From a virus (taxonomy: Duplodnaviria > Caudoviricetes): 61,785 nt of DNA. The translations under genes were made by a program, and so were the position numbers. The notes under the pieces were generated by a model. The model worked only from the letters and a program-made list of their open reading frames with translations, made no database searches and was not told where the DNA came from. Shown here piece after piece: positions 13,001 to 57,733 of the stretch. The stretch lies in the IMG/VR virus record IMGVR_UViG_3300027816_000110, positions 1-61,785 of that record. The stretch is one strand, 5' to 3'. The first letter of the stretch is position 1. Each line of letters begins with the position of its first letter.

Positions 13001-16000
13001 ATGGTTATGAGTGGTGGTGGAGCTTTATCTCAAAAGGTTATAAATGGGAACATCTCACTTTATGATAATGAGGACGTTGACTTTTTGAAAACTGTTTCAA
13101 CTGACAACGAGCTAAGAAAGATGATTGTGATAAAACTTAAGAGCGATATGTTATCTGGAAAGCTAACAAAGGCAGAGGCACAAAATCAATTGAACGCTCT
13201 TGATAAGGTTGGTGCTATATTTAATGCTATGCCTGACAACCTAAGTGTTGAGGACCAAGTTAAGTCTGTAAACCTTATGGCTGAAAAGCAAAGACTAGAA
13301 AAAGAAATTGACGGCAAGGACCAATCTCTTGTTGCCGCTCAAAAGGAAAGAATAACAGAGATTGATAACGAACTACAAAAAATTAGTAAAGATGCCTTTC
13401 AAAAGCAAACAACAGGTGAAGTTCCTGTACAGCCAGAAGCCAGAGTTGGCGAAGAAGTGGAGGGAAGAGTACCCGAAACAAAACTTGAAGAAGTTACCAA
13501 AGAAGGTAAAGAAGTAACAATAGATAAACCTATCATTGCTACAAACACAACTGCCGAACTTGATAGAGTTAAGTCTGTTGATATGGAGACTGAGGATGGT
13601 GCTACATTTAACATAGATGGAACTAAGTACGAGGGAGGCGGTTTGGTTGTTCCTATTGTTAGCGAAAATACTACTGTTGAAGAGATTACCCCAGAGATGA
13701 TATCCGACTTTGTTGAAAAACATTCAAGCAAAATTGGAGATCAAAATACAGTTAAGGTTGGTATATATAAATTCCCTAACAGTAACAAGGTATCGATAGA
13801 CCTAAATATCGTTGCTCCAGAGTCATCAAGACAGCAAGCCATTGAGTTTGCAAAAGCTGCTGATCAAGAGTCTCTGTTTGATTTATCTACATTTGAGAAT
13901 GTAAAGACTGGCGGTACTGGAGTTAATCCTACACAATTTACTGACGAACAATTTAAAGAGATAGCTAAAGCTCTTAACGAAGGAAGAACTCCTAGTTTTT
14001 CAACACCTACACAACAAAACATAGTAACACTTGAGAATGTAGAAGAGGTTGCAGACAAAAGAACGGCTACAGCTACTAAGTTGGTATTGAACGCTCTTCC
14101 TGACGTTAAGATATATATTCACAATACAAACGAAGAGTACTCTGCTGCAATAGGTGAAGAGGCTGAAACTGGAGACAGAGGAGCGTACGATACACAAGAA
14201 GGAGCTATACATATTAATTTAGCAGCTGGAGGTAACGCTCAAACTGTATTCCATGAGGCTATCCATCATGCCTTACTAAAGAAAGGTATGGATAGCGGAG
14301 CTATACTTGATTTAGCTAATGGTCTTAATAGAATAATTACTGACAAGAAGTTAAAGAAAAGGTTAAGTGATTTCATATCTCAATATGAAACATCTGACCA
14401 AGCTGAAGAGTATTTGTCAGAACTAGGGGCCATAATGGCTGAAGCTGAGATCGAACTAACTACAACAAAGTTCAATCAGTTTAAAGCGCTTATCGCTAGA
14501 ATATTCCAAAAGTTAGGACTACCTAAATCTATGGTTCCTTTCTTGAATGCTATGAATTCAGAGAACGCTGTTGACTTTATTAATAGTTTGACTAAATCTT
14601 TGAGGACTGGTGAGGAAGTTGAGGTATCTCAACGAGAAAAAAAATCTGAAGGTATTAAAAAACAAGCTGTAACCATAATGGAAGGCAAGGAGTCCATGGA
14701 AGAGTTTGGATTACCTAAAGGTAAGAATATAACTAGAAAAATTGGAGAAGCTCTTGAAGCTAGACAAAGATCTAAATATGGAACTATAGATCAAAAAGAT
14801 AATTCAACAAATGCTAGAAAGAAAATATCAAACTGGATGGTTGATGAAGTTAAATACTTTATTAAACTTATGGGTGATAAAAGTGGAAAAGGATGGTATG
14901 GTGAATTATATCAAAAGTCTTTAGACGCAATGTCTAAGGTTTTTCCAGAAATGAAAAATGATCAAAACGCAAGAGATTTGTTTACAATGCTTGTAGCTAT
15001 TACATCTGATGGTCAGAAAGTTATGAGTAATTTTAAATTAGCTGCTGCCGCATATGATTATTATAAAAAGAATGGTAAGATGCCATCTACTCTTCCTGGG
15101 CAACGTGTTGCTTCTTTTGAATCTAATTTAAATAGAATAAATAAATTACTTACAGATTATAATGGAGATATAGCTGCTATTAAAAAAGATTTAATGGAGG
15201 TTAAATCTATTGAAGAGATAAATAAAGAAAGAAGAAAACAAGGTCTTGAGCCATTATCTACAAATTGGCCAGTAAGTTTTAAAGCTCCATTTGCCGCATC
15301 AGTATTTGGCCCTAAATTAGGAATGTTTTATTCTAATTTATCTGGAAATGAAGCATATCCTACACTTGATAGATGGTGGTCTAGAACATTTAATAGATAT
15401 AGAGGAACATTAATTCCAGGATTAAAAAGCGGATTCAGTAAAAAGGGAGAAGCTATAGGTCTTGATAGATTTAAACAATTATTAGGTAATGCAGGTATGA
15501 GTAATGAGGAAGCATTACTTGCATCTAAATCTTATAGAGATTCGTATGCGGCTAAAGGATATAAAAACGGAAGCGATATTGAAAAAGCAGCTAATACTAT
15601 ATATAAGATAGCATTTGAAAATTTAAATGATGCTCCATTTACAAAAAATGATAGACAATTTATGTATGATACAGTTTCTGATGCTGTAGAAATATTAAAC
15701 AAACAAGGTTATAATTTGAGCATAGCTGATGTTCAAGCTATACTTTGGTACTTCGAAAAAAACCTTTACAAAACACTTGGGGTTCAAGCAAAAATAGAAG
15801 GAATAAGTTATGAAGATGCAGCAAATTATACATATAACAAATGGAAAGAATCGGGTAAAAAGTTTGATTATAAAATTAATGAATCAGAAGAAGGTCAATC
15901 AGTAGAAGATGCTGATGAAGATATAGAAGCAGAAGGAAAACAAATAAAGAAACAAAAGTCAACTATAAAAATATACGGAGAAGACTTTACTGAAACTTTT

Positions 16001-19000
16001 GAAAAATCTGGAATTCCTTTTGCATATCTTTCTGATATTAAAAATAAAACCATTCCAGACTGGATGGGTGGAGAAAATAAAAAGATAACTGAATTAAGAA
16101 AAAGCATTTTAGATTCAATAGATAGATCTTTAGAATATTGGAAAAATGATTTATCAAAACAATCAAAAAAAATATATGATTCGGATAGCAATTTAGAATT
16201 AAGGAAGTCATTGATAAACAAAAAATCTGATAGAATACTATCACTTGAAAAACTTAAATCTAATGTTGAGAATAATTTACTTTCTCTATCAGACATTGAA
16301 ATAAATTATGTTGATGAGGGAACTAAATTCAAAAAACACAAAGGTGAAAAAATAACTGCACCAGTAGCTGGAAACAAGCTGTTCAATGAGCCTTTAAAGG
16401 ATGCTGAAAATATAGCTAGATCTTACATGCAATCTATCGGTATGGAATATATACCAGTAGAAAAGATAACAAAACTAGATGAAGGTCTTTCAAAAAGAAT
16501 ATCTGACGCTTACGATCAGATGGAAAATAATCCAAACGATCCGAAGGTAAAGGCTGCTTATGAGGCTATGGCTAAGGAAACATTAGATCAGTATGACGCT
16601 ATAGTTAAAGAAGGCTACAATGTTGAGATAAATAATAACGAGCCTTACTCAAACTCTGAAGCTATGATAAAAGACCTTAAGGATAATAAGAGGATGAAAA
16701 TATTCTCTACAGAATCTGGTTTTGGAGATGAGCCTATAACTGAAGAGCAGAGATCTGAAAATTTATTATTAAAAGACTCTGGAAGAAAGGATGTAAATGG
16801 TGAGACTTTGTTGATCAATGACGTGTTTAGATTTGTGCATGACTTCTTTGGTCACGCCAAACTAGGCAACAGTTTTGGTCCAGTAGGAGAAGAGAATGCT
16901 TGGAGAGTTCACTCTGAGATGTATTCTCCAGAAGCTAGAAAGGCTATGACATCTGAGACAAGAGGTCAAAATAGCTGGGTTAATTTTAGTGGTGTAAATG
17001 ACGCTGCATTCAAGAAGAGAGATAAGGCTAGAGAACTTCGTAAAGAAGGTAAGATAGAAGAGGCTGATAGATTGGTAGGCGAGGTATATGAGGAGATGAA
17101 ATTTGCCGATCAAAAGGTTGGCATATTGCCAGATTTTGCTATTGAAGAGGGGACTAGGTTTAAGAAACAAAAACCAACATCCAAACAAGATGCCATCCAA
17201 AAAGCCAAGGATAAGTACGAACTGTCTGTAGAAAAGAGAGGTAACTCTCACGAACAAGGAGTTACTGCCGCTCTTGGTGACTTACAAAAGTCTGATTGGT
17301 ATGTAAACGCTGACGATACAGCAAGAGAAGATGCAGTTAGAGAGATCAAGGCTTTCTTCGGTGAGAAGATTAAGAAGGCTCCGTCTGTTGCTAAGATTTT
17401 AGGTAAACCAAAACCAGAGACGCAAACAAAAACCGTTGATGCCTTACGAAAAGAATTCTTTACTGCTTGGAACAAAGCGTCAAGAGAAGCAAAGGCCGAT
17501 CTAAATTCCAAAAGAAAAGCCATTGGAGCAATAATCAAGTCAATGGTTCGGTCTGGCAAAATAACAACCAAACAGTCTGCTGTTATTACAGATAGAGCTA
17601 GCAGTATAAATCTTGACAACCCAGTAATTGTACAAAGATTTTTAGACTACGTTGCTAAGGTTTTTGCTGATGCTAACTATCAAGAAAAATTAAGCAATGC
17701 ATTCTCTGCAAGAAGAGCGATAAGAAGACTTACTAAGTCAAACAACCAGGCCGAGGTTATCGGTATGGCTAAGGCGTTCTTGAATATCGATCCATCGATG
17801 GTTGAAGACATCGATACATATAACGAGATAGCTGACTCAATTAAAAATGCTATGGCTCCATCTGTTGTAAGGGGAGAGCAAGTAAAATTCAAGCAGCCAG
17901 CAAATATAGCTGACGTGAATGAATACACTATGGATGAGATATCTAGACAAGAAGAAATCAAAAAGGACCAACTATTAGCCGAGTATGACTATCTTAAGGA
18001 TGCTGGATTGATATCTAAAGACATGACTCTAAATGAGATAAGAAAGATCATAGAGGATATGAAGTCTACAGATACTGATATCAACGATGACGTTAAAGAC
18101 TTTGTTGAGAGAAGACTAGACATGATGCTTGGTATTGTAGAGTCTATTATTAGAACTGGAGTCAATCCAATCACTGGAGAGTCTATAGAAATATCTGATA
18201 AAAACAAAGATATCCTAAAAGCTATAATGAAGATGGATCTAAAAGAACTTGATACAAGAAGCTTGATCTATCTATCTGAATCTGTAGATAACTTCCTAAA
18301 TAACGGAATAACAAGCGGTCTTGAGGCTAATGTACAGTCATATGTTGGAGCTATGAAAGTTAAGGCTCTTGTAAATGCTGGCGTTAAATCTGTTGGTATA
18401 AAAACAAAAGCTTCTAAGATAGCATCTACTGAAATACTTAGCATACCTTTATTATTTGAAAAATTATTTAGAGGTACTACCATTGGTACTAGAATAATGA
18501 GTGATATGGGATTGTTGGATATGGTTAACGGCAAAAATAAAGCTGAACTTATATACAACAAAATACTTGAATCGTACACAAAGCAAGATTTCTACGGAAA
18601 GGACTTTATGACTCAACAGAACATCATAGAAAGAGGTATGCTTGCATATCTTATGAGAAATGTTAATGGTGATAACGCTCAAGTTAAAGCAGAACTAAAT
18701 AGGAGAATTGACGCTATATCTGAGAGTATTGAACAACTAAAAGAAGGAAATAGCGATGAGCAGAAACTAGCTGAAATGTATGAGAATGCATTCTCTAAGT
18801 TAAAAGTAAATTCTAGAGACATTGATATCATAAGAGCTAACTCATCTAAGTCAAACAGAGAAGCTGTTGACTGGTGGGTAGATCAATGGAAACAACACTA
18901 TACAGATTTATATGATGTCAGTTTGTCTGTTTACAACACTATGTTAAGTAGTGATATAAACTATACTCCAGATAAAATGAAGCTTATGGCTTCTAAGGCA

Positions 19001-21055
19001 CAAGATGACGACATAACTAGCTCAGATAGCGGATTTGTATCATCTCTTGGGTACACAGATACAAAAAAAGCTGGTGTGTTGATGGAAAATGTTAGAAAGA
19101 AACCAAAGAATAGATACGTTGATCTAAACTTTGATATGAATAACGCTAACTCATTAAGAAATGCACTTGTTGACATAAATACAGCTGCCGCTATTAGACA
19201 AGTAAAAGGCTTCATGGACTCTAATAACTTTGATAAATTAGCTGGAGATGAGTCTTCATTGATAAAGTCAAGAGTGAACTCTTACGTGAAAAGAATGAAG
19301 GGTAAGAGGATGATACCTAGAAGTAGCGCTGATGACATTATGAAGTATTTTAATGCAATAGCTAAGGCTGGTACTATTAGAGCTTTAGGTGGAATTGGTT
19401 CTGCAATTAAGCAGTTCTCTCCTGTAATAAATACATTGCTAAATGCAGGTAGATTTACAAGTTTAACTCCTAACAGTAATGCTTGGATCGACAGACTTGG
19501 CATGCCTATATCTAACCGTGGTATAAAATCAGAAGCTAATATTGATACTATAGACAAGAGAGTTAATGTTTTGGCTGATTCAGCTGTTGGTAAAGTTTAT
19601 GATGGTGTAGGTAAGATAGGTGACATGTGGTTGAAGGCATTAATACAATCGCCAGATGCTTATGTAGCTAAATCTTCATTTATTACTTACTACTTAAAGA
19701 GTTTAAGAGATCAAGGTCTTAGCACTAATATAGATTGGAACAACCACGAGGTAAATAAAAAGGCAGCTGAATATGCTCAAATGCAAGTTGATAGACAACA
19801 GAACGTATCTGATCCTTTACTAACTGGAGAACTATTTGCAACTGAAGATGCTACTAAAAAAATGATCACAAAACTTTTCATGCCATTTACATCATTTGTT
19901 TGGAACCAGAGAGCTAGGATGATAAATGATATGCAAATATTAGGATCTAAAGTATCATCAAAGGAAGATAAGATAATAGCTATGAGATCACTAGCTGCCC
20001 TTCCAGCAGAGATTGTAGTATTTAACTTATTAGGTGCAGCAATAAGAAAAACAATAGACGCTATAACAAATTACTTCTACGGAGAAGATGATGATGAAGA
20101 GGAAGAAGTATTGTTCTATGTGTTTGGAATGAAAGTCACTGAAGATGATGTTAAGGAATTTAAGATGCCTATCAAAAACTTATTGGTGGATTTATTCTCA
20201 CCTCTTCCTGGCCTAACAGATGAATTCTTAATTACTGGATTTAATAATCTATTTGAAATGTACCCACTAGTTGGTGATGATGAGATAGCAGAGTTGGTTA
20301 AGGCTGAAAATGATATAAGAATAGCAAACGGTGATAAACCTATGACTGAAAAACAAGAGGCAGATTTTATTGAAGAGGAGAAGAAAAAAAGAACATTCCA
20401 ACTGTATGAAAATATGGAAGCTACTGGATGGGAAAGATATATACCTGGTGCCCCAGGAGTTGCATTGAAAACATATAGCGAATTAAAAGATGCTATAGAC
20501 TTAGCAATGACTGGAAAGTATGAAGATGAGTATCAAGGAAGAAAAACAATTAAGTATATATCTGATGAAGATAGAGAGAAAGTTGCTTATGGATTATTCT
20601 TCCAGATACCACAAGCTTTAGGTTTGTTACCGAGAGAGGCTGGTCAGATTCCAAATAAAGGTATACGTAATATTAAAAAGAGATCATATACAGAAAATCA
20701 AAAAACAAAAATAGACGAGGTTGAAAAATTAACAAATCGTCCTGTTGGTAAAATTGAAAAAGTATTGATCGGCAAGAACTCAGATCCAAGGAAGATAGCT
20801 ATGGAAATGAAAATGATAGATAAGCTTGGAGGATTTGATGAAAAACAGGAGGCTGAATACGCAAAACTTAGAAGAACAATTAGTAAACCTAGTATGAAAT
20901 TCGCTCAAATGATTAAGGGAGGAATGACGGCAGAGGATATAATAAGAAGAATTGCCGAGAATAAAGGAATAGTAAAAGGTAGAACTGGAACTACAAGACA
21001 AGGAACAGTTAGAAAGGGAACTGTTAGAGAAGGGAAAATAAGAGAGGGGCAATAG
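10055..21055 (+). CDS. Giant polyvalent virion (ejection) protein with zincin metallopeptidase (HEAIH) and several enzymatic-looking cassettes
   Basis: 3666-aa ORF; RGAY..IHINL..TVFHEAIHH motif at 14252; further conserved-looking domains at ~13590-13925, ~14700-15880 and ~16350-17140. Confidence 0.75.
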   Translation: MNDKLQQLYNLYKSKGLINTTDFNTFASANSQQIQQLYNLGKKNGLFNTTDLNTFSSAFSPQQKWRQVTEKESAGRLNYRKDDFRTWDIVEETQKGMTKEERKKTGFDYTPEQIAAGKKAVAMEEAPVIEYSDLKLRRGKDGVFYKVEGNNWYEVAFPRDMSKNIINESVVSLEGSDLYKINDPKKVESLNIEFGEKVKLPNAGFDTDQKLIKTGIDTKIPSVLDKAVKPEDDLYDVFGGWDENTRGLRFKKNDRTNTWMQIKPGVDSVWSVVTEAMAKELNKRYGGRYGSVPKQADNLTDYQILNKTYGQEGGSGVLKRELLPDGEPTFGLPKSVENTGWFQTLYPQTMMGQAVNAEEARRRGVKSFEENVQRYVTNNNIANLEEEEAVKMLTNQFGRYGFEFIESGAGDEMIVRTKDGLREVVINLDTDNTGENIRLQDFLITNMDPSAYEPGNQKYAELINRDRRLIYSNNGSNSQSLYKDLQELFNDEDYKIWAQNLPYGELEQEVNQRIGEYRSLMNKPGVNSSQVFKDMKAFEKSPMYQQYQKNKKEAFELERMKIQSLYDEVRLDPGQNSRARQKVRMFLSDKYLDKTRTEYNAMLNDINKSDKFLKTRYDEYNAELQKLNTSNLTPEQIRVKKEQLDKMALQLDLDQSNLVRRKRAISTEVKQLEYLTGKYVVDVAKEGSFIGGVMNSFSDGISKMIKTGDVVGRLQAETKGSQIADNMTEEEKRYYKTKGYSLEEIKIAEANKAWKESKEDLSNRMKSAIGDLATTKQYQQSEDRGIVSKALFGLAESLPAMATSVINPYVGFGSLSAQAYSSLEDEMLNDPDFETTSLTEMNLIALPYAMGMGILEKIGLSAAMSKNPLAKSLIMKSIQGAVKKTAGKGSAELLQNVLDKEIKSNMAKFGLRIVGGALTEAETGATQSLVLDIGYKSLINEIKKDDRLASELTGGEFFDTPDSFMDGLKMVIEDGIAEGIGGMVMSGGGALSQKVINGNISLYDNEDVDFLKTVSTDNELRKMIVIKLKSDMLSGKLTKAEAQNQLNALDKVGAIFNAMPDNLSVEDQVKSVNLMAEKQRLEKEIDGKDQSLVAAQKERITEIDNELQKISKDAFQKQTTGEVPVQPEARVGEEVEGRVPETKLEEVTKEGKEVTIDKPIIATNTTAELDRVKSVDMETEDGATFNIDGTKYEGGGLVVPIVSENTTVEEITPEMISDFVEKHSSKIGDQNTVKVGIYKFPNSNKVSIDLNIVAPESSRQQAIEFAKAADQESLFDLSTFENVKTGGTGVNPTQFTDEQFKEIAKALNEGRTPSFSTPTQQNIVTLENVEEVADKRTATATKLVLNALPDVKIYIHNTNEEYSAAIGEEAETGDRGAYDTQEGAIHINLAAGGNAQTVFHEAIHHALLKKGMDSGAILDLANGLNRIITDKKLKKRLSDFISQYETSDQAEEYLSELGAIMAEAEIELTTTKFNQFKALIARIFQKLGLPKSMVPFLNAMNSENAVDFINSLTKSLRTGEEVEVSQREKKSEGIKKQAVTIMEGKESMEEFGLPKGKNITRKIGEALEARQRSKYGTIDQKDNSTNARKKISNWMVDEVKYFIKLMGDKSGKGWYGELYQKSLDAMSKVFPEMKNDQNARDLFTMLVAITSDGQKVMSNFKLAAAAYDYYKKNGKMPSTLPGQRVASFESNLNRINKLLTDYNGDIAAIKKDLMEVKSIEEINKERRKQGLEPLSTNWPVSFKAPFAASVFGPKLGMFYSNLSGNEAYPTLDRWWSRTFNRYRGTLIPGLKSGFSKKGEAIGLDRFKQLLGNAGMSNEEALLASKSYRDSYAAKGYKNGSDIEKAANTIYKIAFENLNDAPFTKNDRQFMYDTVSDAVEILNKQGYNLSIADVQAILWYFEKNLYKTLGVQAKIEGISYEDAANYTYNKWKESGKKFDYKINESEEGQSVEDADEDIEAEGKQIKKQKSTIKIYGEDFTETFEKSGIPFAYLSDIKNKTIPDWMGGENKKITELRKSILDSIDRSLEYWKNDLSKQSKKIYDSDSNLELRKSLINKKSDRILSLEKLKSNVENNLLSLSDIEINYVDEGTKFKKHKGEKITAPVAGNKLFNEPLKDAENIARSYMQSIGMEYIPVEKITKLDEGLSKRISDAYDQMENNPNDPKVKAAYEAMAKETLDQYDAIVKEGYNVEINNNEPYSNSEAMIKDLKDNKRMKIFSTESGFGDEPITEEQRSENLLLKDSGRKDVNGETLLINDVFRFVHDFFGHAKLGNSFGPVGEENAWRVHSEMYSPEARKAMTSETRGQNSWVNFSGVNDAAFKKRDKARELRKEGKIEEADRLVGEVYEEMKFADQKVGILPDFAIEEGTRFKKQKPTSKQDAIQKAKDKYELSVEKRGNSHEQGVTAALGDLQKSDWYVNADDTAREDAVREIKAFFGEKIKKAPSVAKILGKPKPETQTKTVDALRKEFFTAWNKASREAKADLNSKRKAIGAIIKSMVRSGKITTKQSAVITDRASSINLDNPVIVQRFLDYVAKVFADANYQEKLSNAFSARRAIRRLTKSNNQAEVIGMAKAFLNIDPSMVEDIDTYNEIADSIKNAMAPSVVRGEQVKFKQPANIADVNEYTMDEISRQEEIKKDQLLAEYDYLKDAGLISKDMTLNEIRKIIEDMKSTDTDINDDVKDFVERRLDMMLGIVESIIRTGVNPITGESIEISDKNKDILKAIMKMDLKELDTRSLIYLSESVDNFLNNGITSGLEANVQSYVGAMKVKALVNAGVKSVGIKTKASKIASTEILSIPLLFEKLFRGTTIGTRIMSDMGLLDMVNGKNKAELIYNKILESYTKQDFYGKDFMTQQNIIERGMLAYLMRNVNGDNAQVKAELNRRIDAISESIEQLKEGNSDEQKLAEMYENAFSKLKVNSRDIDIIRANSSKSNREAVDWWVDQWKQHYTDLYDVSLSVYNTMLSSDINYTPDKMKLMASKAQDDDITSSDSGFVSSLGYTDTKKAGVLMENVRKKPKNRYVDLNFDMNNANSLRNALVDINTAAAIRQVKGFMDSNNFDKLAGDESSLIKSRVNSYVKRMKGKRMIPRSSADDIMKYFNAIAKAGTIRALGGIGSAIKQFSPVINTLLNAGRFTSLTPNSNAWIDRLGMPISNRGIKSEANIDTIDKRVNVLADSAVGKVYDGVGKIGDMWLKALIQSPDAYVAKSSFITYYLKSLRDQGLSTNIDWNNHEVNKKAAEYAQMQVDRQQNVSDPLLTGELFATEDATKKMITKLFMPFTSFVWNQRARMINDMQILGSKVSSKEDKIIAMRSLAALPAEIVVFNLLGAAIRKTIDAITNYFYGEDDDEEEEVLFYVFGMKVTEDDVKEFKMPIKNLLVDLFSPLPGLTDEFLITGFNNLFEMYPLVGDDEIAELVKAENDIRIANGDKPMTEKQEADFIEEEKKKRTFQLYENMEATGWERYIPGAPGVALKTYSELKDAIDLAMTGKYEDEYQGRKTIKYISDEDREKVAYGLFFQIPQALGLLPREAGQIPNKGIRNIKKRSYTENQKTKIDEVEKLTNRPVGKIEKVLIGKNSDPRKIAMEMKMIDKLGGFDEKQEAEYAKLRRTISKPSMKFAQMIKGGMTAEDIIRRIAENKGIVKGRTGTTRQGTVRKGTVREGKIREGQ

Positions 21056-31997: not shown

Positions 31998-32135
31998 TTG
32001 TCAGGACAGGACTCGAACCTGTATTTGTAAGTGTTCATCAGTCAATATCCTCACTTACCGAAGTTGTGTACAAAATCCTTTGACCTCCGTGCGTCTACCA
32101 CGCCAGGGAAATCCCTAGCCTTCCGCCACCTGACT
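31998..32135 (-). ncRNA. tRNA-like RNA (Leu-type D/T arms, D-loop insertion, no canonical anticodon arm)
   Basis: GTCAGG/CCTGAC acceptor stem, TGGCGGAA..TGGTAGACGC D arm, ACAGG-TTCGAGT-CCTGT T arm. Confidence 0.7.
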
Positions 32136-32197: not shown

Positions 32198-32337
32198 GTT
32201 CTCAAGAAGGGATTCGAACCCTTGCCGCATCCGTTTACCTGCATGACATACGTTGAAACTCCTACAGTTTTAATGATGGTCAAGCTCCCCATCTTTTAAG
32301 TCATATTTCGCCTTCGACCACTCAGCCACTTGAGAAC
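32198..32337 (-). ncRNA. tRNA-like RNA (Ser-type D arm, expanded anticodon region)
   Basis: GTTCTCAAG/CTTGAGAAC stem, TGGCTGAGTGGTCGAAGGC D arm, AAGGG-TTCGAAT-CCCTT T arm. Confidence 0.7.
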
Positions 32338-37153: not shown

Positions 37154-37435
37154 TTATAGGTTAATAATTATTTTATCTTTATTCTTTTCTCCCCATTTGT
37201 TTATTTGGTCTAGGGTGTAGGAAGTCCATGTTGCTTTACCATTGTCATATTCATATCTTGATATGTCTACCTCTCTATTTGAATCTAATTCTTCCCACAC
37301 ACCATAACTTATGCTCATGATTGGTGCAGTGATAACGAAGTATGTTCCCGTCCATGATTTCTCAACATAAACATTAATAGGAAATTTATCCTTAATGCTC
37401 CATGATTTTTCTTTTTGAAAATTTATTTCAGCCAT
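37154..37435 (-). CDS. Hypothetical early protein
   Basis: ORF with TAGAACTT-ATG start. Confidence 0.55.
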   Translation of the reverse strand: MAEINFQKEKSWSIKDKFPINVYVEKSWTGTYFVITAPIMSISYGVWEELDSNREVDISRYEYDNGKATWTSYTLDQINKWGEKNKDKIIINL

Positions 37436-37440
37436 AAGTT

Positions 37441-37665
37441 CTAAAATGTTAGTTTATCAAATTCATGAAACATGTCTATCTTGTCATTCGGAAATCTATC
37501 CGTTAACGCTCTGAACAAATCTTCGTTCGTGTACTCCTCATATCCATCTCGTTCTGCGTTTACGATTGGTTGGATGACTTCAGCGATTTGGTCATCGTTC
37601 AAGGTAGTTAATAGATAGAAGTCTTCTTCATTAAATGCTGTTGTGTTGATTCTAATTACTCTCAT
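37441..37665 (-). CDS. Acidic hypothetical early protein
   Basis: ORF starting 24 nt after hammerhead 1 cleavage site. Confidence 0.6.
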   Translation of the reverse strand: MRVIRINTTAFNEEDFYLLTTLNDDQIAEVIQPIVNAERDGYEEYTNEDLFRALTDRFPNDKIDMFHEFDKLTF

Positions 37666-37683
37666 TTGTTCTAAGTTTTTATT

Positions 37684-37740
37684 GGTTAAGACAGCACCTT
37701 TGGAGTGCTGTTTCGATTATTTAAATCTCGTCAGTTAACC
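37684..37740 (-). ncRNA. Type I hammerhead ribozyme 1
   Basis: GGUUAA-CUGACGA-GAUU(uaaau)AAUC-GAAAC-AGCAC(uccaaag)GUGCU-GUC^UUAACC. Confidence 0.93.
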
Positions 37741-37962
37741 TTGGTGAAACATGCTCTCCTTGAATCGAATCAATTGACCCTCCTCGTACTTGAGTAGGTC
37801 GTCTAGCTTGTCTCTGTCAACGGATATTATTCCGTGTATCGGGTGCTTGATGTCGTTGATGCCAACGAATTGCTTGTTGCGAATCAATTGCTCTCTGATT
37901 GTCAATTGTCTGATAGTGCCTTCCGCCTTGTGAAAGCCTACGTTGTTCATTCTCTTTTCCAT
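37735..37962 (-). CDS. Hypothetical early protein
   Basis: Stop codon lies in stem I of hammerhead 1. Confidence 0.55.
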   Translation of the reverse strand: MEKRMNNVGFHKAEGTIRQLTIREQLIRNKQFVGINDIKHPIHGIISVDRDKLDDLLKYEEGQLIRFKESMFHQG

Positions 37963-37967
37963 AATTT

Positions 37968-38108
37968 CTATTTGTTATATACCTCGTCTAATTGGTAGCC
38001 GTAACGCTTTTGCATGTAAGCTACGTAGTTATTAAAATGTTGTTCGTTCTCAAATTCCTTCGTGATGATTATCTGCTCTCTACGATGGTTAAAAAATACT
38101 AGTATCAT
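37968..38108 (-). CDS. Small early protein (46 aa, MILVFFNHRR...)
   Basis: Translated by hand. Confidence 0.55.
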   Translation of the reverse strand: MILVFFNHRREQIIITKEFENEQHFNNYVAYMQKRYGYQLDEVYNK

Positions 38109-38125
38109 CGCGCTCTGAATGGAAT

Positions 38126-38215
38126 TAATAATCTCTTAGTCTTAACTAATGTTCCGTTTAGAAAGAATCCCCATACCTCGAAGTTCCCTTCAATCTTTAA
38201 GATTTTTGTGCTCAT
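38126..38215 (-). CDS. Small early protein (29 aa, MSTKILKIEGNFEVWGFF...)
   Basis: Translated by hand; starts 23 nt after hammerhead 2 cleavage site. Confidence 0.5.
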
Positions 38216-38232
38216 GGCTATTAAATTAAATT

Positions 38233-38287
38233 GGTTAAGACGTGACACGTAGTCACGTTTCGGTCATTGAGACCTCATCAGTCAACC
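38233..38287 (-). ncRNA. Type I hammerhead ribozyme 2
   Basis: GGUUGA-CUGAUGA-GGUC(ucaau)GACC-GAAAC-GUGAC(uacgu)GUCAC-GUC^UUAACC. Confidence 0.95.
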
Positions 38288-38442
38288 TCGTTGATAAATT
38301 TCTTTGCCTCATCTAATGTCATGTGTATACCACATGCATCAAATCCATCCGCATCGACAATTATATATCTGTCTTCTGTTTGAATCTCGCCAGTATAGTC
38401 ATATTGACCTTTTTCTAAATAAATTTCTATTGTGTAATACAT
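38278..38442 (-). CDS. Small acidic early protein (54 aa, MYYTIEIYLEKG...)
   Basis: Translated by hand; bracketed by hammerheads 3 and 2. Confidence 0.6.
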   Translation of the reverse strand: MYYTIEIYLEKGQYDYTGEIQTEDRYIIVDADGFDACGIHMTLDEAKKFINEVD

Positions 38443-38459
38443 GATTTCTATGTTTTATT

Positions 38460-38516
38460 GGTTAATACGGCATCTTGTGAATGCCGTTTCGAATACTAAA
38501 TTCTCATCAGTTAACC
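38460..38516 (-). ncRNA. Type I hammerhead ribozyme 3
   Basis: GGUUAA-CUGAUGA-GAAU(uuagu)AUUC-GAAAC-GGCAU(ucacaag)AUGCC-GUA^UUAACC. Confidence 0.93.
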
Positions 38517-38629
38517 TAAATGTAAATCGGTGGAACGTGACCTGTTATGATTTGGTAGACGGCATATCCAATACCGAACAAAATACCAAATGCTAAACTG
38601 CTTGTCCAAACTGCAAATACTACTTTCAT
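38516..38629 (-). CDS. Small membrane protein (37 aa, MKVVFAVWTSSLAFGILFGIGY...)
   Basis: Translated by hand; one hydrophobic helix; first ORF of the early operon. Confidence 0.55.
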   Translation of the reverse strand: MKVVFAVWTSSLAFGILFGIGYAVYQIITGHVPPIYI

Positions 38630-38652
38630 GGCTATAAATTTAAATGGTTAGT

Positions 38653-38699
38653 GCCGTGCTGAGTTTCGCTCTCAGTTAATGACTCATAGTCAACACGGC
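38653..38699 (-). ncRNA. Mini tRNA-like three-way junction
   Basis: GCCGUG/CACGGC stem stacked on CUGAG-AGCGAAA-CUCAG arm, plus UGAC/GUCA hairpin. Confidence 0.5.
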
Positions 38700-39030
38700 T
38701 ATAATGTACCTTGCACCACACTTATATAGGTGGAATCGAACCACCACAAGGATATTATCTTTATCTGTAACCTACCATGCGTGAAATAGGAGTAGTCTTA
38801 ATTGCTTTTCAGCTTCCGCTTTTTTGATGTTATCGTAGGCGACGCATGTTCCAAGATGTCAAAGACCGATATTTATTAATCTAATTACTATTCATTGCCT
38901 ATAACACTTTAACCATTTCCCTTTCGGTGTTTATTATCGGTTTCATTTAGACTTTATGCACTAGGCTAGTCGCACCCTTATTTCCGTGTTGTTTTCTAGT
39001 AAGAAGTATTGTTGTTAGCTCGTTTGCTTA
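38700..39030 (-). ncRNA. Long structured early leader with T-arm and boxA-like element
   Basis: No ORF; ACCGAUA/UAUCGGU and CAUGCGU/ACGCAUG stems, GGUGG-UUCGAUU-CCACC, GUCUUUGACAU. Confidence 0.5.
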
Positions 39031-39059
39031 CATCAAAGTAACGGCAACTGATTGGATTA

Positions 39060-39600
39060 ATAACGATTTTTTTTTAGACGTTTTGAAAAATACGTGTTAA
39101 TACGTAGAAGAATCTAAGTGTTTATACGTAGTGACGACACCATTGGAGAAGGCTGTAATGACTGGCAAAGTCTTATTGGTATTGGGTTTGGGATCGATTT
39201 AGATTATTTTGCAGTAAATTCATTTGTGAAGTAAGATTACAAGACGGGGTAACCCCTCCCCTCCAATCAATCGAGCTGAAACGTAGAACGGACGGACGAT
39301 TGAACGATTGGTCGGTTGGTCTATTTAACATAATGCAAATTATAATACAAGTTTGTCGAGCGATTTTAAGGTAGGGGTAATTGGTCTCAGATAACAACAC
39401 ACCACCCCACCCCTGCGCACAAGCACACCCACCCCTACACACGTGCGCGTAGCGTACAGGTAGGCAGGTAGGTAGGTCGCTAGGCAAAAAGCCAAAAAGT
39501 CCGACCGAACTTTCCGAAATACATACCCCCCTATCGATTTGCCAGTCGTTTCGGTCGATCGGGCTGGCGCGCCAGATGGGGGTATTACCCAAAAATTCCG
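39060..39600. other. Non-coding strand-divergence region, candidate genome terminus/packaging region
   Basis: GC-rich low-complexity tracts and short repeats between divergent early and late blocks. Confidence 0.45.
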
Positions 39601-39608
39601 TATATTTG
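39601..39608 (+). promoter_or_regulatory. Bacteroidota -7 promoter element TATATTTG
   Basis: TAnnTTTG at the start of the rightward block. Confidence 0.6.
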
Positions 39609-39704
39609 CCATATGGTTAAAAAACACATCAAACGGAATAACACGATCAAGAAGAACTTAGATCGTATAAAAAATAATTCATTATCTTTACAAAAAATAA
39701 AGTC

Positions 39705-39947
39705 ATGCCAAACGATAAAAAAATAAAGACTGTTGAACGTACTACAGCAAATAAGTTTGTAGCTGTTCCTAATCCATTCAGACCTATCAAAAAAACTCCA
39801 TCAGGTCTACCTACAAAGTATTATAATGAAGTTCCAGTAAAAACTACAACAGTTACTAAGAACGGTGTTACAAAAACAAAAACAAACAGAAAAATTGATC
39901 CAGATATGCCTGGAGTTATAAATAATAAGAGGTGGAGGAAAGGATGA
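39705..39947 (+). CDS. Small basic hypothetical protein
   Basis: ORF with A-rich leader. Confidence 0.5.
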   Translation: MPNDKKIKTVERTTANKFVAVPNPFRPIKKTPSGLPTKYYNEVPVKTTTVTKNGVTKTKTNRKIDPDMPGVINNKRWRKG

Positions 39948-40078
39948 CAGTAATCCTACAGTTTAGTATGCCTTACGGCCTTAATGTTGGTTTTGAGTAT
40001 TACAAGGCTGAGGAAGGTTTAGACAATGAGTTTCATCTCAATTTGTTAATTTTTAAAATTATATTGTTATGGCATTAA
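39944..40078 (+). CDS. Small hypothetical protein (44 aa, MTVILQFSMPYG...)
   Basis: Translated by hand; ATGA overlap with the upstream gene. Confidence 0.45.
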   Translation: MTVILQFSMPYGLNVGFEYYKAEEGLDNEFHLNLLIFKIILLWH

Positions 40079-41289
40079 TGAGAACGGGTCGTAAAATGAT
40101 GATTGGTGACCCACCAAGTCTTCCTACTAGACGACAGGATGTTACTAAAGCAATGAGCGATCTACAGCAAGTAAAAATAAGTGGTCCTAAAGACGATCCA
40201 TTTGTTGGAACATTTGCCAGAAAGGGTGATATAGCTGAAACTTCAAAGAGAAACAAAATGGCTCAAGAGTCTTACAGTAAGGCATCTTCTGAGTACAAAC
40301 AAAAGTCTGAGGCTAAATCGTCTTACGACAAACAAAAAGCTGCATATGACGAATTCTTAAAAAGTAAACCGACAAGAAAAGCAAAAGGAACTCTTGAAGA
40401 TATGACTGAAGAGCAAGAGATGTCTGTTTATGGTAAGAAGGAGTTATCTGGATCAGAGTTAGAGAGCTTCTACAATGCTCCATCTAATAAGTCTTTTAAA
40501 CAAAGTCGCTTACCAAATGAGCGTATACTTGTGCATGATTACGAGGAGCAAAAAAAGACTGGATTTAAAGGTCCAATGAATGTAACAAGAATGTACAAGG
40601 ATCCAGGTGCTGATCCAGGTAGTCCAGGTAAAGCTCCAGAACAGCCTAAATTAGTTCAACCTAAAACAACTACAGTTGGAAGAATTAAAAAAGATGAAGT
40701 TGAATCATGGGCTTCACCTACAAGAACTAGGGGCGGAGGTAGTAAATTGATGACTCAAAAGATACCTGTTAAAAAATCAACATCTGAACGTCAAAAAGGC
40801 TACACATACGGCAAAGAGCGAAAAATGGCTGCTGCTTACTATGGTGCTATTGGTGATGTTCTAGGTGAGGAAGGAAGATATGCAACTAGTGGTGCTTTAG
40901 GAGACTTCCAAAAAACACGTAAGGAAGATATAAAAAGTTTGAAATCTGAAAAGAGAGCTTCTTCCGACGCGTCTGAAAAAAGGTCTATCAAAAAAGATAT
41001 TAAATCAAGCAGGAAAGATATCAGAGAAGCCAAACTAGCTCAGAAATACGTAGAGTCTTTACCTAACAAATATCAATCTTCTGCTGGTGTAGCAAAAGAT
41101 GATATACGTAGAAATGTAGAAAACGAAAAACTACCAGAAGGTAAAAACAAGCCAAAAAGAGTAGTTAGAACTTTTACTCCAGAATCTATGAAGGGATCTA
41201 CAGAACAATCAAGGCAATCAATGCTAACTGAAACTAAAAAAGTAAGAAATTTAGGCCCAACTAAACGAACAATGCCAAAAAATAGATAA
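40069..41289 (+). CDS. Lys/Arg-rich, likely disordered hypothetical protein
   Basis: 406-aa ORF followed by a terminator. Confidence 0.6.
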   Translation: MALMRTGRKMMIGDPPSLPTRRQDVTKAMSDLQQVKISGPKDDPFVGTFARKGDIAETSKRNKMAQESYSKASSEYKQKSEAKSSYDKQKAAYDEFLKSKPTRKAKGTLEDMTEEQEMSVYGKKELSGSELESFYNAPSNKSFKQSRLPNERILVHDYEEQKKTGFKGPMNVTRMYKDPGADPGSPGKAPEQPKLVQPKTTTVGRIKKDEVESWASPTRTRGGGSKLMTQKIPVKKSTSERQKGYTYGKERKMAAAYYGAIGDVLGEEGRYATSGALGDFQKTRKEDIKSLKSEKRASSDASEKRSIKKDIKSSRKDIREAKLAQKYVESLPNKYQSSAGVAKDDIRRNVENEKLPEGKNKPKRVVRTFTPESMKGSTEQSRQSMLTETKKVRNLGPTKRTMPKNR

Positions 41290-54523: not shown

Positions 54524-57500
54524 ATGGAAAATAGTCTTTACACTATAGTAAATAATCACATACACAAAACTGCATTAACAACAAAAAATGCAAAGAAATC
54601 TTGGACGTATGGTTATCATCCAGATTATGATCTAGTTGTGATATCAAGGGATGGTACTATAGGTGAAATATATGATATAAACGGTGTAAAGATTGCGCTT
54701 CCATCAGAACCAAGCTCATTACATAAAGGTTCAAACAAGTGGGTAGCAGAAGAATATCCATCAGAACTACAGAAGATAAAAACTGTATTTGATTGGAATA
54801 GAAAAGACAATACATTTAAATCAAAGTATGTAGATTATATAGAACAAGAGTTTGACAGAAGAGATTATGGGCATTGGTTTATGAATAACGGTAAGCCAAC
54901 ATATATAACTGGAACTCATTATATGTATTTACAATGGACAAAGATAGATATAGGTCTTCCAGAATTTAGGGAATCTAACAGAATATTTTATATATACTGG
55001 GAAGCATGCAAGGCTGACAACAGATCTTTTGGTATGTGTTACCTAAAGAACAGACGTTCTGGTTTCTCATTTATGTCGTCTGCTGAGGTCTGTAATACTG
55101 CAACTTTAGCAAAAGACGCTAGAGTAGGTATACTGTCAAAGACTGGTAGTGATGCCAAGAAGATGTTTACAGATAAGGTAGTACCCATTGTAAGAAACTA
55201 TCCTTTCTTCTTCAAACCTATACAGGACGGTATGGATAACCCGAAGACTGAGTTAGCGTTTAGGGTTCCAGCAAGTAAGATCACTAGGAGAAACATGGAT
55301 GAAGAAAAGACTGAAGATATTGAAGGTCTTGATACAACTATTGACTGGAAGAATACAGCAGACAACAGTTATGACGGTGAGAAATTACTGATGCTTGTTC
55401 ACGATGAGTGTTACGACCCCGAAACAAATATACTTATGTCTGATTTTAAATTTAAAAAAATAAAAGACATTAATATAGGAGACAAGGTAATTGTTGAAGG
55501 AGGTATTATTAAAACGGTTGTTAAGAAAACATCTGGAATAACAGAAAAATATTTAGTTAGTCAACCTTATGCTAAAGATTATGTAGTAACCAAGAATCAT
55601 AGATTATTATTCAACAGTTATGGTAAAGGAGAAGTTATAATGACTCCAGAGGAATACATAAATAGTTCTAATTGTTTAAAAAGGCATATAACAAGAGTAG
55701 CTTCAAAAGGAATAGAATCAGAGGATTGTTTTGATGGAATACCTCCTTATTTATTAGGTCTTTGGTTAGGTGACGGAAGAAGTAACTCATTTACTATACT
55801 TGTTAATAAAACAGAGGAGCCTGAGATACTTGATTATCTAGGAAAGATGTCTTTAATGATGAATATAGATTTCGAATTAAAAAAATCTACATCCGATAAA
55901 ATAGTTGAATTCTCATTCAAAGGAATAAATAAAGAACTTAAAAAAATAAATGTATATAAAAACAAACATATACCAGAAGATTACATAAAATCATCAATAG
56001 AGTCAAGATTACAACTTTTAGCTGGTATAATAGAAACAGATGGATATTGCGATAAGAAAAAGAAATCTATAGAGATAGGAATGAGTAGAAAAGATTTGGT
56101 GGAGCAAATTAGATTTATAGCGCTTTCTTGCGGATTATCATGTAGTAATATCTCTCACAAAAAAAGTAATTATGATACAGATGTGTATAGAATATTTATA
56201 TCTGGAGATTTATCAATAATACCTTTATTAACAGCTAAAAAATCATTTGAAGGATATCAACCTAAAACAAAAGGAAGAAGAAATAAAGTAAGTGTAAGTC
56301 ATATAGGTTTAGGTGAATATGTTGGAATACAAGTTGATGCAGAAAATGACAATGAAAGAAAATTAATATTAGATGATTTCACATTGAGCATGAATAGCGG
56401 AAAATGGGAGAAACCAGAAAACATCTTAAACAACTGGAGGGTAACAAAGACGTGTCTTCGTTTAGGAGCTAAGATAGTAGGTAAGTGTATGATGGGATCA
56501 ACGTCTAATGCTCTTCCAAAAGGTGGTCAGAATTTTAAGGATTTATACTACGACAGCAGTATATCTAAAAGGTCAGCAAATCATCAAACAAAGAGTGGTT
56601 TGTATTCATTATTCATTCCTATGGAGTGGAACGTAGAAGGATATATCGATGAGTTTGGATGGCCAGTATTTACAGATCCAAGTAAACCAGTGAAGGGTAT
56701 AGATGGTGAGATGATAACTCAAGGCGTTATTACTTGGTGGGAGAACGAGGTAGCCGCATTAAAATCTGATGCTGACGCTCTTAATGAATTCTATAGACAG
56801 TACCCAAGGACTGAGTCTCATGCATTTAGAGATGAGTCTAAGCATTCATTATTTAACTTAACTAAGATATATCAACAGATAGACTACAATGACTCTCTAA
56901 TAAAGGAGAAGTTTTTAACTAGGGGTTATTTCCACTGGAAGAACGGAGAGGTTGATAGCGAGGTTATTTGGACTCCAGATCCTAAAGGTAGGTTTATAGT
57001 TTCATGGATACCTAATCAAGAATTAAGAAATAGAAAAATAGTAAGAAATGGAAAATTTTATCCAGGTAATGAAAGCCTTGGTGCTTTTGGTTGTGACCCT
57101 TATGATATCTCTGGTGTTGTTGGTGGGGGTGGTTCTAACGGTGCTCTTCATGGTGTTACTTCGTTTCATATGGAGCAAAATGTACCGTGCAATGAATTCT
57201 TTTTAGAGTACATAGCTAGACCTCAAACGGCTGAGATATTCTTCGAGGATGTGCTTATGGCATGTGTGTTTTATGGTATGCCGATACTTGCTGAAAACAA
57301 CAAGGCTAGACTGCTGTACCATTTTAAAAACAGAGGATACAGGGCATACTCCATGAACAGGCCAGACAAACATCAGTCAAAGTTGTCTAAAACTGAGATA
57401 GAGATAGGCGGTATACCTAACTCATCAGAAGATATGAGGCAAGCTCATGCATCTGTAATTAACACTTACATAGAGGAGCATGTAGGCTTTGATAACGAGG

Positions 57501-57733
57501 GTACATACAGAGAATCTGGCGTTATAGGATCCATGTATTTTAATAGAACTTTAGAAGATTGGGCTAGGTTTAATATAAACGATAGAACGAAGCACGATGC
57601 CACGATTAGTTCTGGTTTAGCACTAATGGCGATCAAGCGTTACATGTTTTTACCAGAGAGAAAAGAATCAAAAATAAGTATTAAATTTGTAAAATACGAT
57701 AATCGTGGAAGCAGAAGCGAAATAATAAAATAA
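54524..57733 (+). CDS. terL: Terminase large subunit containing an intein
   Basis: KNRRSGFS Walker A, LVHDE Walker B, MGST, GCDP, AENN and HDATIS nuclease motifs. Confidence 0.92.
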   Translation: MENSLYTIVNNHIHKTALTTKNAKKSWTYGYHPDYDLVVISRDGTIGEIYDINGVKIALPSEPSSLHKGSNKWVAEEYPSELQKIKTVFDWNRKDNTFKSKYVDYIEQEFDRRDYGHWFMNNGKPTYITGTHYMYLQWTKIDIGLPEFRESNRIFYIYWEACKADNRSFGMCYLKNRRSGFSFMSSAEVCNTATLAKDARVGILSKTGSDAKKMFTDKVVPIVRNYPFFFKPIQDGMDNPKTELAFRVPASKITRRNMDEEKTEDIEGLDTTIDWKNTADNSYDGEKLLMLVHDECYDPETNILMSDFKFKKIKDINIGDKVIVEGGIIKTVVKKTSGITEKYLVSQPYAKDYVVTKNHRLLFNSYGKGEVIMTPEEYINSSNCLKRHITRVASKGIESEDCFDGIPPYLLGLWLGDGRSNSFTILVNKTEEPEILDYLGKMSLMMNIDFELKKSTSDKIVEFSFKGINKELKKINVYKNKHIPEDYIKSSIESRLQLLAGIIETDGYCDKKKKSIEIGMSRKDLVEQIRFIALSCGLSCSNISHKKSNYDTDVYRIFISGDLSIIPLLTAKKSFEGYQPKTKGRRNKVSVSHIGLGEYVGIQVDAENDNERKLILDDFTLSMNSGKWEKPENILNNWRVTKTCLRLGAKIVGKCMMGSTSNALPKGGQNFKDLYYDSSISKRSANHQTKSGLYSLFIPMEWNVEGYIDEFGWPVFTDPSKPVKGIDGEMITQGVITWWENEVAALKSDADALNEFYRQYPRTESHAFRDESKHSLFNLTKIYQQIDYNDSLIKEKFLTRGYFHWKNGEVDSEVIWTPDPKGRFIVSWIPNQELRNRKIVRNGKFYPGNESLGAFGCDPYDISGVVGGGGSNGALHGVTSFHMEQNVPCNEFFLEYIARPQTAEIFFEDVLMACVFYGMPILAENNKARLLYHFKNRGYRAYSMNRPDKHQSKLSKTEIEIGGIPNSSEDMRQAHASVINTYIEEHVGFDNEGTYRESGVIGSMYFNRTLEDWARFNINDRTKHDATISSGLALMAIKRYMFLPERKESKISIKFVKYDNRGSRSEIIK
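55409..56395 (+). mobile_element. Intein with LAGLIDADG homing endonuclease (329 aa)
   Basis: HDE|CYDPET ... LSMN|SGKW junctions; LLGLWLGDG and LLAGIIETDG motifs; more AT-rich than flanks. Confidence 0.92.

Follow-up and report, generated by a model that had tools for sequence, protein, structure and literature searches.

Three type I hammerheads lie between the first minus-strand genes

The IMG/VR virus record IMGVR_UViG_3300027816_000110, a complete-looking genome of 61,785 bases (CheckV estimate 100%) that was analyzed over its whole length and is called the window below, carries three type I hammerhead ribozyme motifs on its minus strand, all inside 833 bases. We consider it probable (about 0.75), judging from the letters of the three elements and of their relatives, that they work as self-cleaving type I hammerheads and are encoded in the transcript that carries the first small minus-strand genes. 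They are real hammerheads and very probably active. What the analysis establishes is the motif itself, that it belongs to a family, that its fold is under selection and how it is placed between genes.

All copies showed the same order of elements: the 5' strand of stem I, CUGANGA, hairpin II, GAAA, hairpin III, UH and the 3' strand of stem I. Hammerhead 1 (38516..38460, minus strand) is predicted to cut between 38466 (A17) and 38465, after GUA, while hammerhead 2 (38287..38233, minus) and hammerhead 3 (37740..37684, minus) are predicted to cut after GUC, between 38239 and 38238 and between 37690 and 37689, respectively. As acceptance criteria we used an unchanged core, no core-adjacent mispair and, in short stems, at most one mispair, as given in the part of Perreault et al. 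(PMC3088659) that we drew on. The core was complete in 3/3 copies, with CUGAUGA or CUGACGA, GAAA, the pair A15.1-U16.1, and A, C and C at H17, and the core-adjacent pairs were A-U at N2.1-N1.1, G-C at N10.1-N11.1 and A-U at 15.1-16.1 in each of them. Facing UUAACC, the 5' strand of stem I reads GGUUAA, GGUUGA and GGUUAA in copies 1, 2 and 3, with one G-U pair in copy 2. Stem II is GAAU/AUUC, GGUC/GACC and GAUU/AAUC, and stem III has 8, 7 and 8 pairs of unrelated sequence. Apart from G-U pairs the stems of all three copies were fully paired, and the topology was that of type I, with stem I open and loops closing stems II and III. The native hammerhead fold was the minimum-energy fold (MFE) of copies 2 and 3, and copy 3 retained it with 40-nt flanks.

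An earlier reading of this DNA from its letters only (the sequence-only reading) had described three complete type I cores on the minus strand, taken as the coding strand, with these cuts, with AUGs 23, 23 and 24 nt downstream, and with stems II and III that differ between copies yet stay paired, stem I being conserved. Coordinates, core sequences and cut positions agreed with our own reading, the stem sequences above bear out the last point, and the ATGs lie at 38442, 38215 and 37665. The placement also held: the hammerheads lie between small open reading frames (ORFs) at the start of a block of minus-strand genes, and ORF direction together with GC and AT skew indicates that the minus strand is the coding strand there.

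The copies are not chance matches and fall below the Rfam thresholds

The pattern CTGANGA..GAAA..TTAACC matched three times in the window against 0.08 expected, and none of 100 shuffles reached three matches. Infernal with the Rfam hammerhead models, which the sequence-only reading had put forward as a check, did not return the elements. At gathering thresholds the whole window yielded no ribozyme, the only match being tRNA-like. Hammerhead_1 (RF00163) scored 12.2 bits against a cut-off of 34 at copy 3 and had no match at copies 1 and 2. RAGATH-1-hammerhead (RF03152) scored 23.8 bits against 56.3, at copy 3 only, where its extra 5' hairpin aligned with low posterior probability. Hammerhead_3 scored 20.4 bits against 48.5 in an alignment that was mis-permuted at copy 2 because of a hairpin, UCAAC/GUUGA, lying upstream. 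The window copies are like Hammerhead_1 and RAGATH-1-hammerhead in catalytic core, type I topology and open stem I, but they score below the thresholds of both families and so are not members.

Because the Rfam models gave no hammerhead at their gathering thresholds, we built a covariance model, R1. Its training set was 22 hammerheads of equal length taken from other viral contigs, with the window left out. Run with filters off on all 61,785 bases, R1 scored 61.2 bits at copy 3 (E 6.2e-15), 59.0 bits at copy 1 (E 2.7e-14) and 57.7 bits at copy 2, against 14.5 bits (E 0.19) for the best score elsewhere. The genome holds exactly three copies of this hammerhead, and they are not there by chance.

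A viral hammerhead subfamily is selected for its catalytic fold

A survey of related phages, the other check suggested by the sequence-only reading, gave a positive outcome: the subfamily was found in many viral contigs, with covarying stems. Its shape is a 6-bp stem I and a 4-bp stem II closed by a U-N-A-N-U loop, which is U-N-A-R-U in the window copies. The stem I variant GGUURA...UUAACC was present in at least 116 IMG/VR contigs, which gave at least 148 copies, at least 134 of them distinct; among the matches listed, 84 of the 134 distinct copies have a stem-loop II segment of 13 nt. A second scan left stem I unconstrained and returned at least 120 stretches. The 115 that were examined contained 93 type I-like candidates whose 6-bp stem I varied widely in sequence, GGUUAA/UUAACC occurring in 4 of these 93 among the matches listed. 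R1 found 94 matches (91 distinct rows) in the window plus 99 loci of the unconstrained scan, and 137 matches in 100 loci of the GGUURA...UUAACC scan.

In the unconstrained set, 98.7% of 1335 cells were paired, against 59.4% in shuffles and 30-36% with slid partners. Cells changed on both sides numbered 514, against 139 ± 10 in shuffles, and double changes occurred in 13 of the 15 pairs, including all six of stem I, with compensatory changes supporting each of the three helices. The alignment was fitted to the model, so these counts lean towards structure; the margin is very large. By this comparison the three elements are genuine members of the hammerhead family, and selection maintains their catalytic fold.

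Several positions outside the core were near-fixed in 46 unselected subfamily copies, namely an A before stem I (46/46), an A after stem I (41/46), the distal G-C pair (42/46), and, in loop II, U1 (46/46) and A3 (43/46); U5 was found in 34/46. The two A residues, the distal G-C pair and loop II U1 and A3 were present in 3/3 window copies. These positions are likely candidates for a contact between stem I and loop II that would permit activity at cellular Mg2+.

These data bear on the possibility that the elements are structured RNAs or DNA sites that merely resemble hammerheads and act without cleavage, for instance in pausing, termination or protein binding. Scores below the Rfam cut-offs, and cleavage that is predicted for the window copies, leave some room for this. 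Against it, every catalytic nucleotide is kept in the three copies and in the family while the helices vary, and invariant catalytic nucleotides with freely changing helices form the pattern that selection for catalysis would be expected to produce. In addition, none of the three copies is followed by a U run, and the sole terminator-like call overlapping the hammerheads in a terminator scan is on the plus strand, which is non-coding there. We regard a non-cleaving role as extremely unlikely.

Outside viral contigs, a pattern scan of bacterial genomes returned 68 stretches, against about 90 expected by chance in an estimate that assumes equal base frequencies. R1 recognized a hammerhead in 13 of the 68 loci, and 7 of the 13 are labeled Bacteroidota, including a complete Paraflavitalea genome; the host labels of metagenome-assembled genomes are weak evidence of host. 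Cultured relatives are represented by Flavobacterium phages of the genus Elemovirus, with one family member, in elemoF (GenBank MT497071.1), which scored 40.5 bits and has an imperfect stem II. At the elemoF locus (2462-2569), a 'hypothetical protein' is annotated on the opposite strand over the hammerhead, and an unannotated small forward ORF ends in a TAG that overlaps stem I, as at window copy 1.

Ribozyme and leader fill the space from stop codon to start codon

The genes around the hammerheads, all on the minus strand, are small. ORF1 (38516..38629), the first cistron, encodes a hydrophobic protein of 37 aa upstream of hammerhead 1, and its TAG stop (38518-38516) shares the first G of stem I of that hammerhead. 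ORF2 (54 aa, 38278..38442), which separates hammerheads 1 and 2, has its AUG 23 nt past cut 1 and its TGA stop (38280-38278) inside the CUGA of hammerhead 2. The unit between hammerheads 2 and 3 (37735..38215) holds ORF3 (36 aa, 38215-38105), with its AUG 23 nt after cut 2, ORF4 (46 aa, 38108-37968) and ORF5 (75 aa, 37962-37735), the last ending in a TAA (37737-37735) inside stem I of hammerhead 3. ORF6 (74 aa, 37441..37665) starts 24 nt after cut 3, and from ORF6 on the genes are spaced by 3-12 nt with no more hammerheads. No homologue of ORF1 was found among the fetched loci (tblastn, 1e-3); the ORF1 start was also present in L242 and L281 (L-numbers denote related loci or contigs compared with the window). 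Homologues of ORF3, ORF4 and ORF5 were found by tblastn in related contigs, for example at 97% identity in L103 and 72-76% in L009 and L100.

The same arrangement was seen across 217 distinct hammerheads pooled from both viral scans. An ATG-started ORF of at least 30 codons begins within 120 nt in 204 of the 217, at a median of 23 nt past the cut and at 18-27 nt in 139 of the 204. Upstream, 191/217 have an open frame of 35 codons or more, and its end falls between -17 and +18 relative to the first position of stem I. The commonest upstream stops were the TGA of CUGA (39), a TAA in stem I (36) and a TAG at -2 overlapping the first G (25), and the window uses one each of these three. The general feature of the family is this geometry, in which some 18-27 nt of leader follow the cut and the stop abuts the ribozyme or lies inside it. 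Because the stop overlaps the ribozyme and the leader is short, ribozyme plus leader make up the whole intergenic region. It also follows from the type I topology that the entire ribozyme remains on the upstream RNA after the cut, and for this reason the hammerhead sets the 3' ends of RNAs no less than the 5' ends.

We propose that each ribozyme would fold during transcription, forming stem I, the CUGANGA/GAAA core, stem II and the 7-8-bp stem III, and would cut after GUA or GUC to yield ORF1, ORF2, ORF3-5 and ORF6 onward as separate RNAs. The upstream pieces would keep an intact ORF with its stop and would end in a folded ribozyme with a 2',3'-cyclic phosphate. The downstream pieces would begin 5'-OH-UUAACCAAU and carry an A-rich, unstructured leader of 23-24 nt with no Shine-Dalgarno motif. 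The likely benefit would be that neighboring cistrons become independent in stability and translation without a host nuclease, in Bacteroidota hosts, whose translation starts on unstructured A-rich leaders. This model includes four things that we infer, namely that cleavage occurs in vivo, that the precursor is polycistronic, that it is made early and that expression is affected.

Several points weigh against the proposal that the three copies cut themselves in this transcript. Their cleavage is a prediction from sequence, and every Rfam hammerhead model stays below its gathering score at them. The native fold of copy 1 lies 0.8 kcal/mol above the MFE, with an ensemble probability of 0.07, and the MFE of copy 2 with 40-nt flanks contains an upstream hairpin, UCAAC-GAG-GUUGA, that captures the 5' strand of stem I. 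A ribosome on the upstream stop would cover stem I and the core, so translation could delay folding. Stem I lacks the internal or terminal loop that well-studied hammerheads use for tertiary contacts, and fast cleavage at low Mg2+ would therefore rest on the candidate contact with loop II. Finally, the effect of a 5'-OH on mRNA life varies between bacteria, and the case of Bacteroidota is uncertain. The hairpin upstream of hammerhead 2 lies in coding sequence (38270-38300, minus), and it may be a competitor of hammerhead 2 folding or may tie the ribozyme to ORF2 translation.

The RNA data consisted of metatranscriptome contigs at a depth of 2-8, in which RNA starts and ends are unreadable. Six metatranscriptome runs held 10-14% of the sampled words, and the four that were compared with the window left most of the stretch uncovered. 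One 151-nt contig of a related strain crosses hammerhead 3 and extends 26 letters past the cut, the criterion for bridging being 31.

Uniform 5' ends are a property of this genome rather than of the family

The three predicted cuts each give a downstream RNA that begins UUAACCAAU. The claim of the sequence-only reading that hammerheads define uniform 5' ends thus stands for this genome and for the at least 116 contigs that share its stem I, and fails as a family rule. Stem I covaried freely in the unselected sample, and copies with different stem I sequences were found inside one genome in L139, L197, L185 and L206; a uniform stem I as a rule of the family is ruled out by these two results. 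Within contigs (57 pairs, unselected set), differences per site were 0.284 in stem I, 0.509 in stem II and 0.439 in stem III, against 0.67, 0.615 and 0.681 between contigs. Uniformity of stem I within a genome is, on these sequence comparisons, a tendency and not a rule.

A shared stem I raises the possibility that cleavage is followed by rejoining, in which the hammerhead itself or a host RtcB-type ligase would make circular or re-ordered mRNAs. With one stem I common to the copies, the 3' cyclic-phosphate end of a fragment could pair with a 5'-OH UUAACC end, either its own or that of any other fragment. The (near-)identity of stem I in the three copies, next to stems II and III that differ, and the lower within-contig difference of stem I are what such a process would predict, and Perreault et al. 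(PMC3088659) raised the same possibility. However, their search for spliced or circular products yielded none. Since L139, L197, L185 and L206 carry copies with different stem I sequences, the family can do without exchangeable ends. Among the 25 window proteins scanned, a part of the proteome, no RNA ligase or kinase was recognized, and the RNA contigs, too sparse to count, showed no joints. Taken together, these observations make rejoining very improbable.

Hammerheads come and go between related loci

Comparison with related loci revealed that a gene may keep or lose its hammerhead. In 7/7 relatives no hammerhead stands upstream of the counterpart of ORF6, which in the window comes after hammerhead 3, and L019 and L100 retain a solo TTAACC leader there. 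The counterpart of ORF5, which in the window comes before hammerhead 3, has a hammerhead after it in L100, L072, L085 and L103. In L103, the protein after hammerhead 2 (ORF3) is 97% identical to that of the window, and stems II and III of the ribozyme differ, still pairing. The points where the window stops resembling its relatives fall at the ribozyme or the leader; for example, the alignments of L100 and L085 switch place at 37689-37655, and that of L019 begins exactly at 37689.

All of these observations would be expected if active hammerheads mainly served as joints of exchangeable gene cassettes, with operon processing as a side effect. The means would be short recombination homology provided by stem I, core and leader, or a ribozyme that moves with a mobile gene, and the genes flanked by hammerheads do vary, according to the part of Perreault et al. 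(PMC3088659) consulted. However, mosaic breakpoints in phages usually lie between genes, with a ribozyme or without one. An intact catalytic core would not be needed for recombination, but the core does not vary and compensatory change preserves the stems; the tight distance to the start codon suggests a role in expression. We consider it improbable that cassette joining is the main role. The cassette and processing readings are compatible and not mutually exclusive.

A three-way junction marks the start of hammerhead operons

No hammerhead precedes ORF1. In the place that a hammerhead occupies before later cistrons, the window has a three-way-junction (3WJ) RNA (38653..38699, minus, upstream of ORF1), composed of helix P1 (GCCGUG/CACGGC), hairpin A, a UUAA junction and hairpin B with the loop AGCGAAA. 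It is followed by A-CUAACCAUU and then by the ORF1 ATG at 38629, and the leader is nearly the same as that after the hammerheads (CUAACCAUU vs UUAACCAAU).

A pattern scan for the 3WJ gave 60 contigs, with the P1 helix in 37; L280, one of the 23 without P1, probably has a real 3WJ with a longer hairpin A. RNAalifold analysis of 25 distinct copies returned 15 pairs, 14 of them with compensatory changes, and the hairpin loops and UUAA junction were conserved in these copies. Rfam gave no match in the 3WJ region at E up to 10. Hairpin B, with its 7-nt loop, stacks on the 3' strand of P1, a geometry that is tRNA-like in that respect only; no tRNA match was found in 38600-39700 at E up to 10, and ARAGORN made no call there, with relaxed settings too. 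A tRNA-like element or a known ribozyme was thus rejected for the 3WJ, given no Rfam match and no ARAGORN call. A degenerate hammerhead was rejected also, since the CUGAGAG/CGAAAC of the window belongs to a covarying hairpin in relatives.

Hammerheads followed the 3WJ in 20 of 33 further contigs with a well-formed junction, and all 32 hammerhead matches in those 33 contigs were downstream of it on the same strand. The 22 contigs in which the pattern match has no 3WJ fold contained 0 hammerheads. These sequence data indicate that the 3WJ marks the start of hammerhead operons in related phages. Its candidate roles include a processing site, an antiterminator and a promoter-proximal signal.

We also considered that early operons might be punctuated by two interchangeable RNA signals, hammerhead and 3WJ, both releasing mRNAs with a YUAACCAAU leader. 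The 3WJ could then be a new self-cleaving class or a substrate of a host tRNA-processing enzyme, and the YUAACCAAU leader would itself serve as a signal for stability or for translation where the host makes no use of Shine-Dalgarno pairing. The likeness of CUAACCAUU and UUAACCAAU, the co-occurrence of 3WJ and hammerheads, and a swap at ORF3, whose orthologue has a hammerhead upstream in 5 relatives and a 3WJ in 3, may support this idea. Against it, the 3WJ in those 3 relatives may simply be the start of the operon, and the element could equally be an antiterminator or a promoter-proximal signal. We hold the idea tentatively and regard it as rather unlikely.

Adjoining the 3WJ upstream is a T-loop-like hairpin element (38710..38750, minus) with a 5-bp stem and the loop UUCGAUU, closed by CUUG/CAAG. 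It contains invariant columns in an alignment with four relatives, and its 5-bp stem covaries among copies. Neither ARAGORN nor Rfam made a call for the element at 38710..38750.

Further upstream, the ORF-free stretch 38694-38998 was matched in three riverine metatranscriptome runs by one contig each, of 281-300 nt at >99% identity with 1 other letter each; the three runs belong to three studies, possibly of one campaign. The contigs end at 38694, 38699 and 38706, at the 5' edge of the 3WJ, and at 38986-38998 on the other side. The contigs hint weakly at a discrete RNA or leader of high abundance; branching between strains could also end contigs there. A structured RNA covering this stretch of about 300 nt was rejected, as it folds worse than its shuffles (z = +1.83).

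Two copies of CTACGTATWAACAC, 24 nt apart from start to start, occur at 39094-39131 (minus), immediately upstream of the part covered by RNA contigs, in a stretch (39139-38993) that is 70% conserved with L052; the pair could be an operator or promoter element. A GC-rich, ORF-poor block at 39457-39611 (minus), 70-73% conserved in L052, L090, L006 and L019, holds a CGACCGAAACGACUGG stretch and a terminator-like hairpin (39517-39492). A sigma-70 promoter scan of 37300-40100 found 13 sites against 9.7 expected; the scan does not cover Bacteroidota promoters.

The phage and its probable host

The window is a 62-kb phage related to Flavobacterium podoviruses. Its proteins include a primase-helicase, a helicase, exonucleases and a GroEL. 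In GenBank, the primase-helicase has its nearest relatives in an uncultured 60.9-kb phage, at 50% identity, and in Flavobacterium, Polaribacter, Cellulophaga, Maribacter and Bacteroides phages. Read on the minus strand, the leaders after the three hammerheads contain no Shine-Dalgarno motif. From the relatives of the primase-helicase and from these leaders, the host is likely a Flavobacterium-like member of the Bacteroidota. A blastn comparison with GenBank phages gave no match for the 4-kb hammerhead region or for the 500 nt upstream of it.

Elsewhere in the window, a 3666-aa ORF (10055-21055, plus), scanned in two pieces, had no Pfam match, and the N-terminus of a 1304-aa ORF (2815-6729, plus) matches the crAss-virus muzzle protein family. 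These two ORFs are reminiscent of crAss-like phages with giant virion proteins. A 1069-aa ORF (54524-57733, plus) has Hint and LAGLIDADG homing-endonuclease domains at residues ~296-561, which marks it by domain content as a phage protein with an inserted intein. The Rfam tRNA model scored 35.6 bits at 32199-32335 (minus), with a 76-nt stretch where the model skips 17 positions, and a second T-arm-like GGTTCGAGTCC lies at 32009-32019 (minus), 190 nt from the tRNA-like match. ARAGORN made no call there by default and two intron-containing tRNAs, one with the anticodon UCA, under relaxed settings, and these loci may be interrupted or unusual tRNA genes.

Relation to known systems and significance

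Clustered hammerheads that flank phage and prophage genes were described in 2011 (Perreault et al., PMC3088659), and the cluster in the window is therefore of a known kind. According to the part of that paper used here, clustered prophage hammerheads cut polycistronic RNAs of about 2 kb in vitro, and one set was active in vivo after cloning. Three clustered arrangements were cleaved in vitro, and processing of long transcripts to single- or few-gene mRNAs was proposed. The window resembles those clusters in having several close hammerheads, each between genes of a phage transcription unit. The tested cases that this part describes were from Clostridium, Azorhizobium and Agrobacterium prophages and included type II, whereas the copies here are compact, of type I and predicted to cleave. 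The present subfamily may already be listed in the PMC3088659 alignments.

Type I hammerheads have also been described in the 5' and intergenic untranslated regions (UTRs) of fungal and plant RNA viruses (de la Pena and co-workers 2026, PMC13725137). In the part of that work cited here, RACE confirmed cleavage, the authors suggested that it is linked to the initiation of translation, and the cut lies 7 nt before the start codon in one case. As in the window, a type I hammerhead fills a short intergenic UTR and cuts a few nt before a start codon. The systems described in that part are eukaryotic RNA viruses, and matches in DNA bacteriophages were set aside there as already known. A 2019 review stated that the role of bacterial and phage hammerheads needs additional work to define. 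Our search of the literature on hammerheads together with crAss, Flavobacterium phage and stop or start codons did not find the stop-codon and leader arrangement in DNA phages. Added here are the definition of the subfamily, its stop-codon and leader geometry, and the associated junction element.

In the early transcript of T7, RNase III cuts between cistrons and leaves a hairpin at the 3' end of the upstream mRNA. RNase III is a host protein enzyme that leaves a 5'-phosphate and a 3'-OH, whereas here the RNA would cut itself and leave a 5'-OH and a 2',3'-cyclic phosphate. With that difference, the comparison with T7 appears to be a fair functional analogy. RiboJ, an engineered insulator made of a satellite-RNA hammerhead and a hairpin, gives the same 5' end whatever lies upstream. 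Like RiboJ, a hammerhead before a ribosome-binding region would standardize the 5' end; unlike RiboJ, those of the window occur in nature, and after the cut they would remain part of the upstream RNA.

A large viral subfamily of type I hammerheads escapes the Rfam models, so phage annotation pipelines will pass over such elements or place false small ORFs on them. With its geometry present in most of the 217 copies, the window locus together with the family is a sharply defined arrangement for testing what hammerheads are for, and this phage group, which has cultured Elemovirus relatives, could serve to test hammerhead function.

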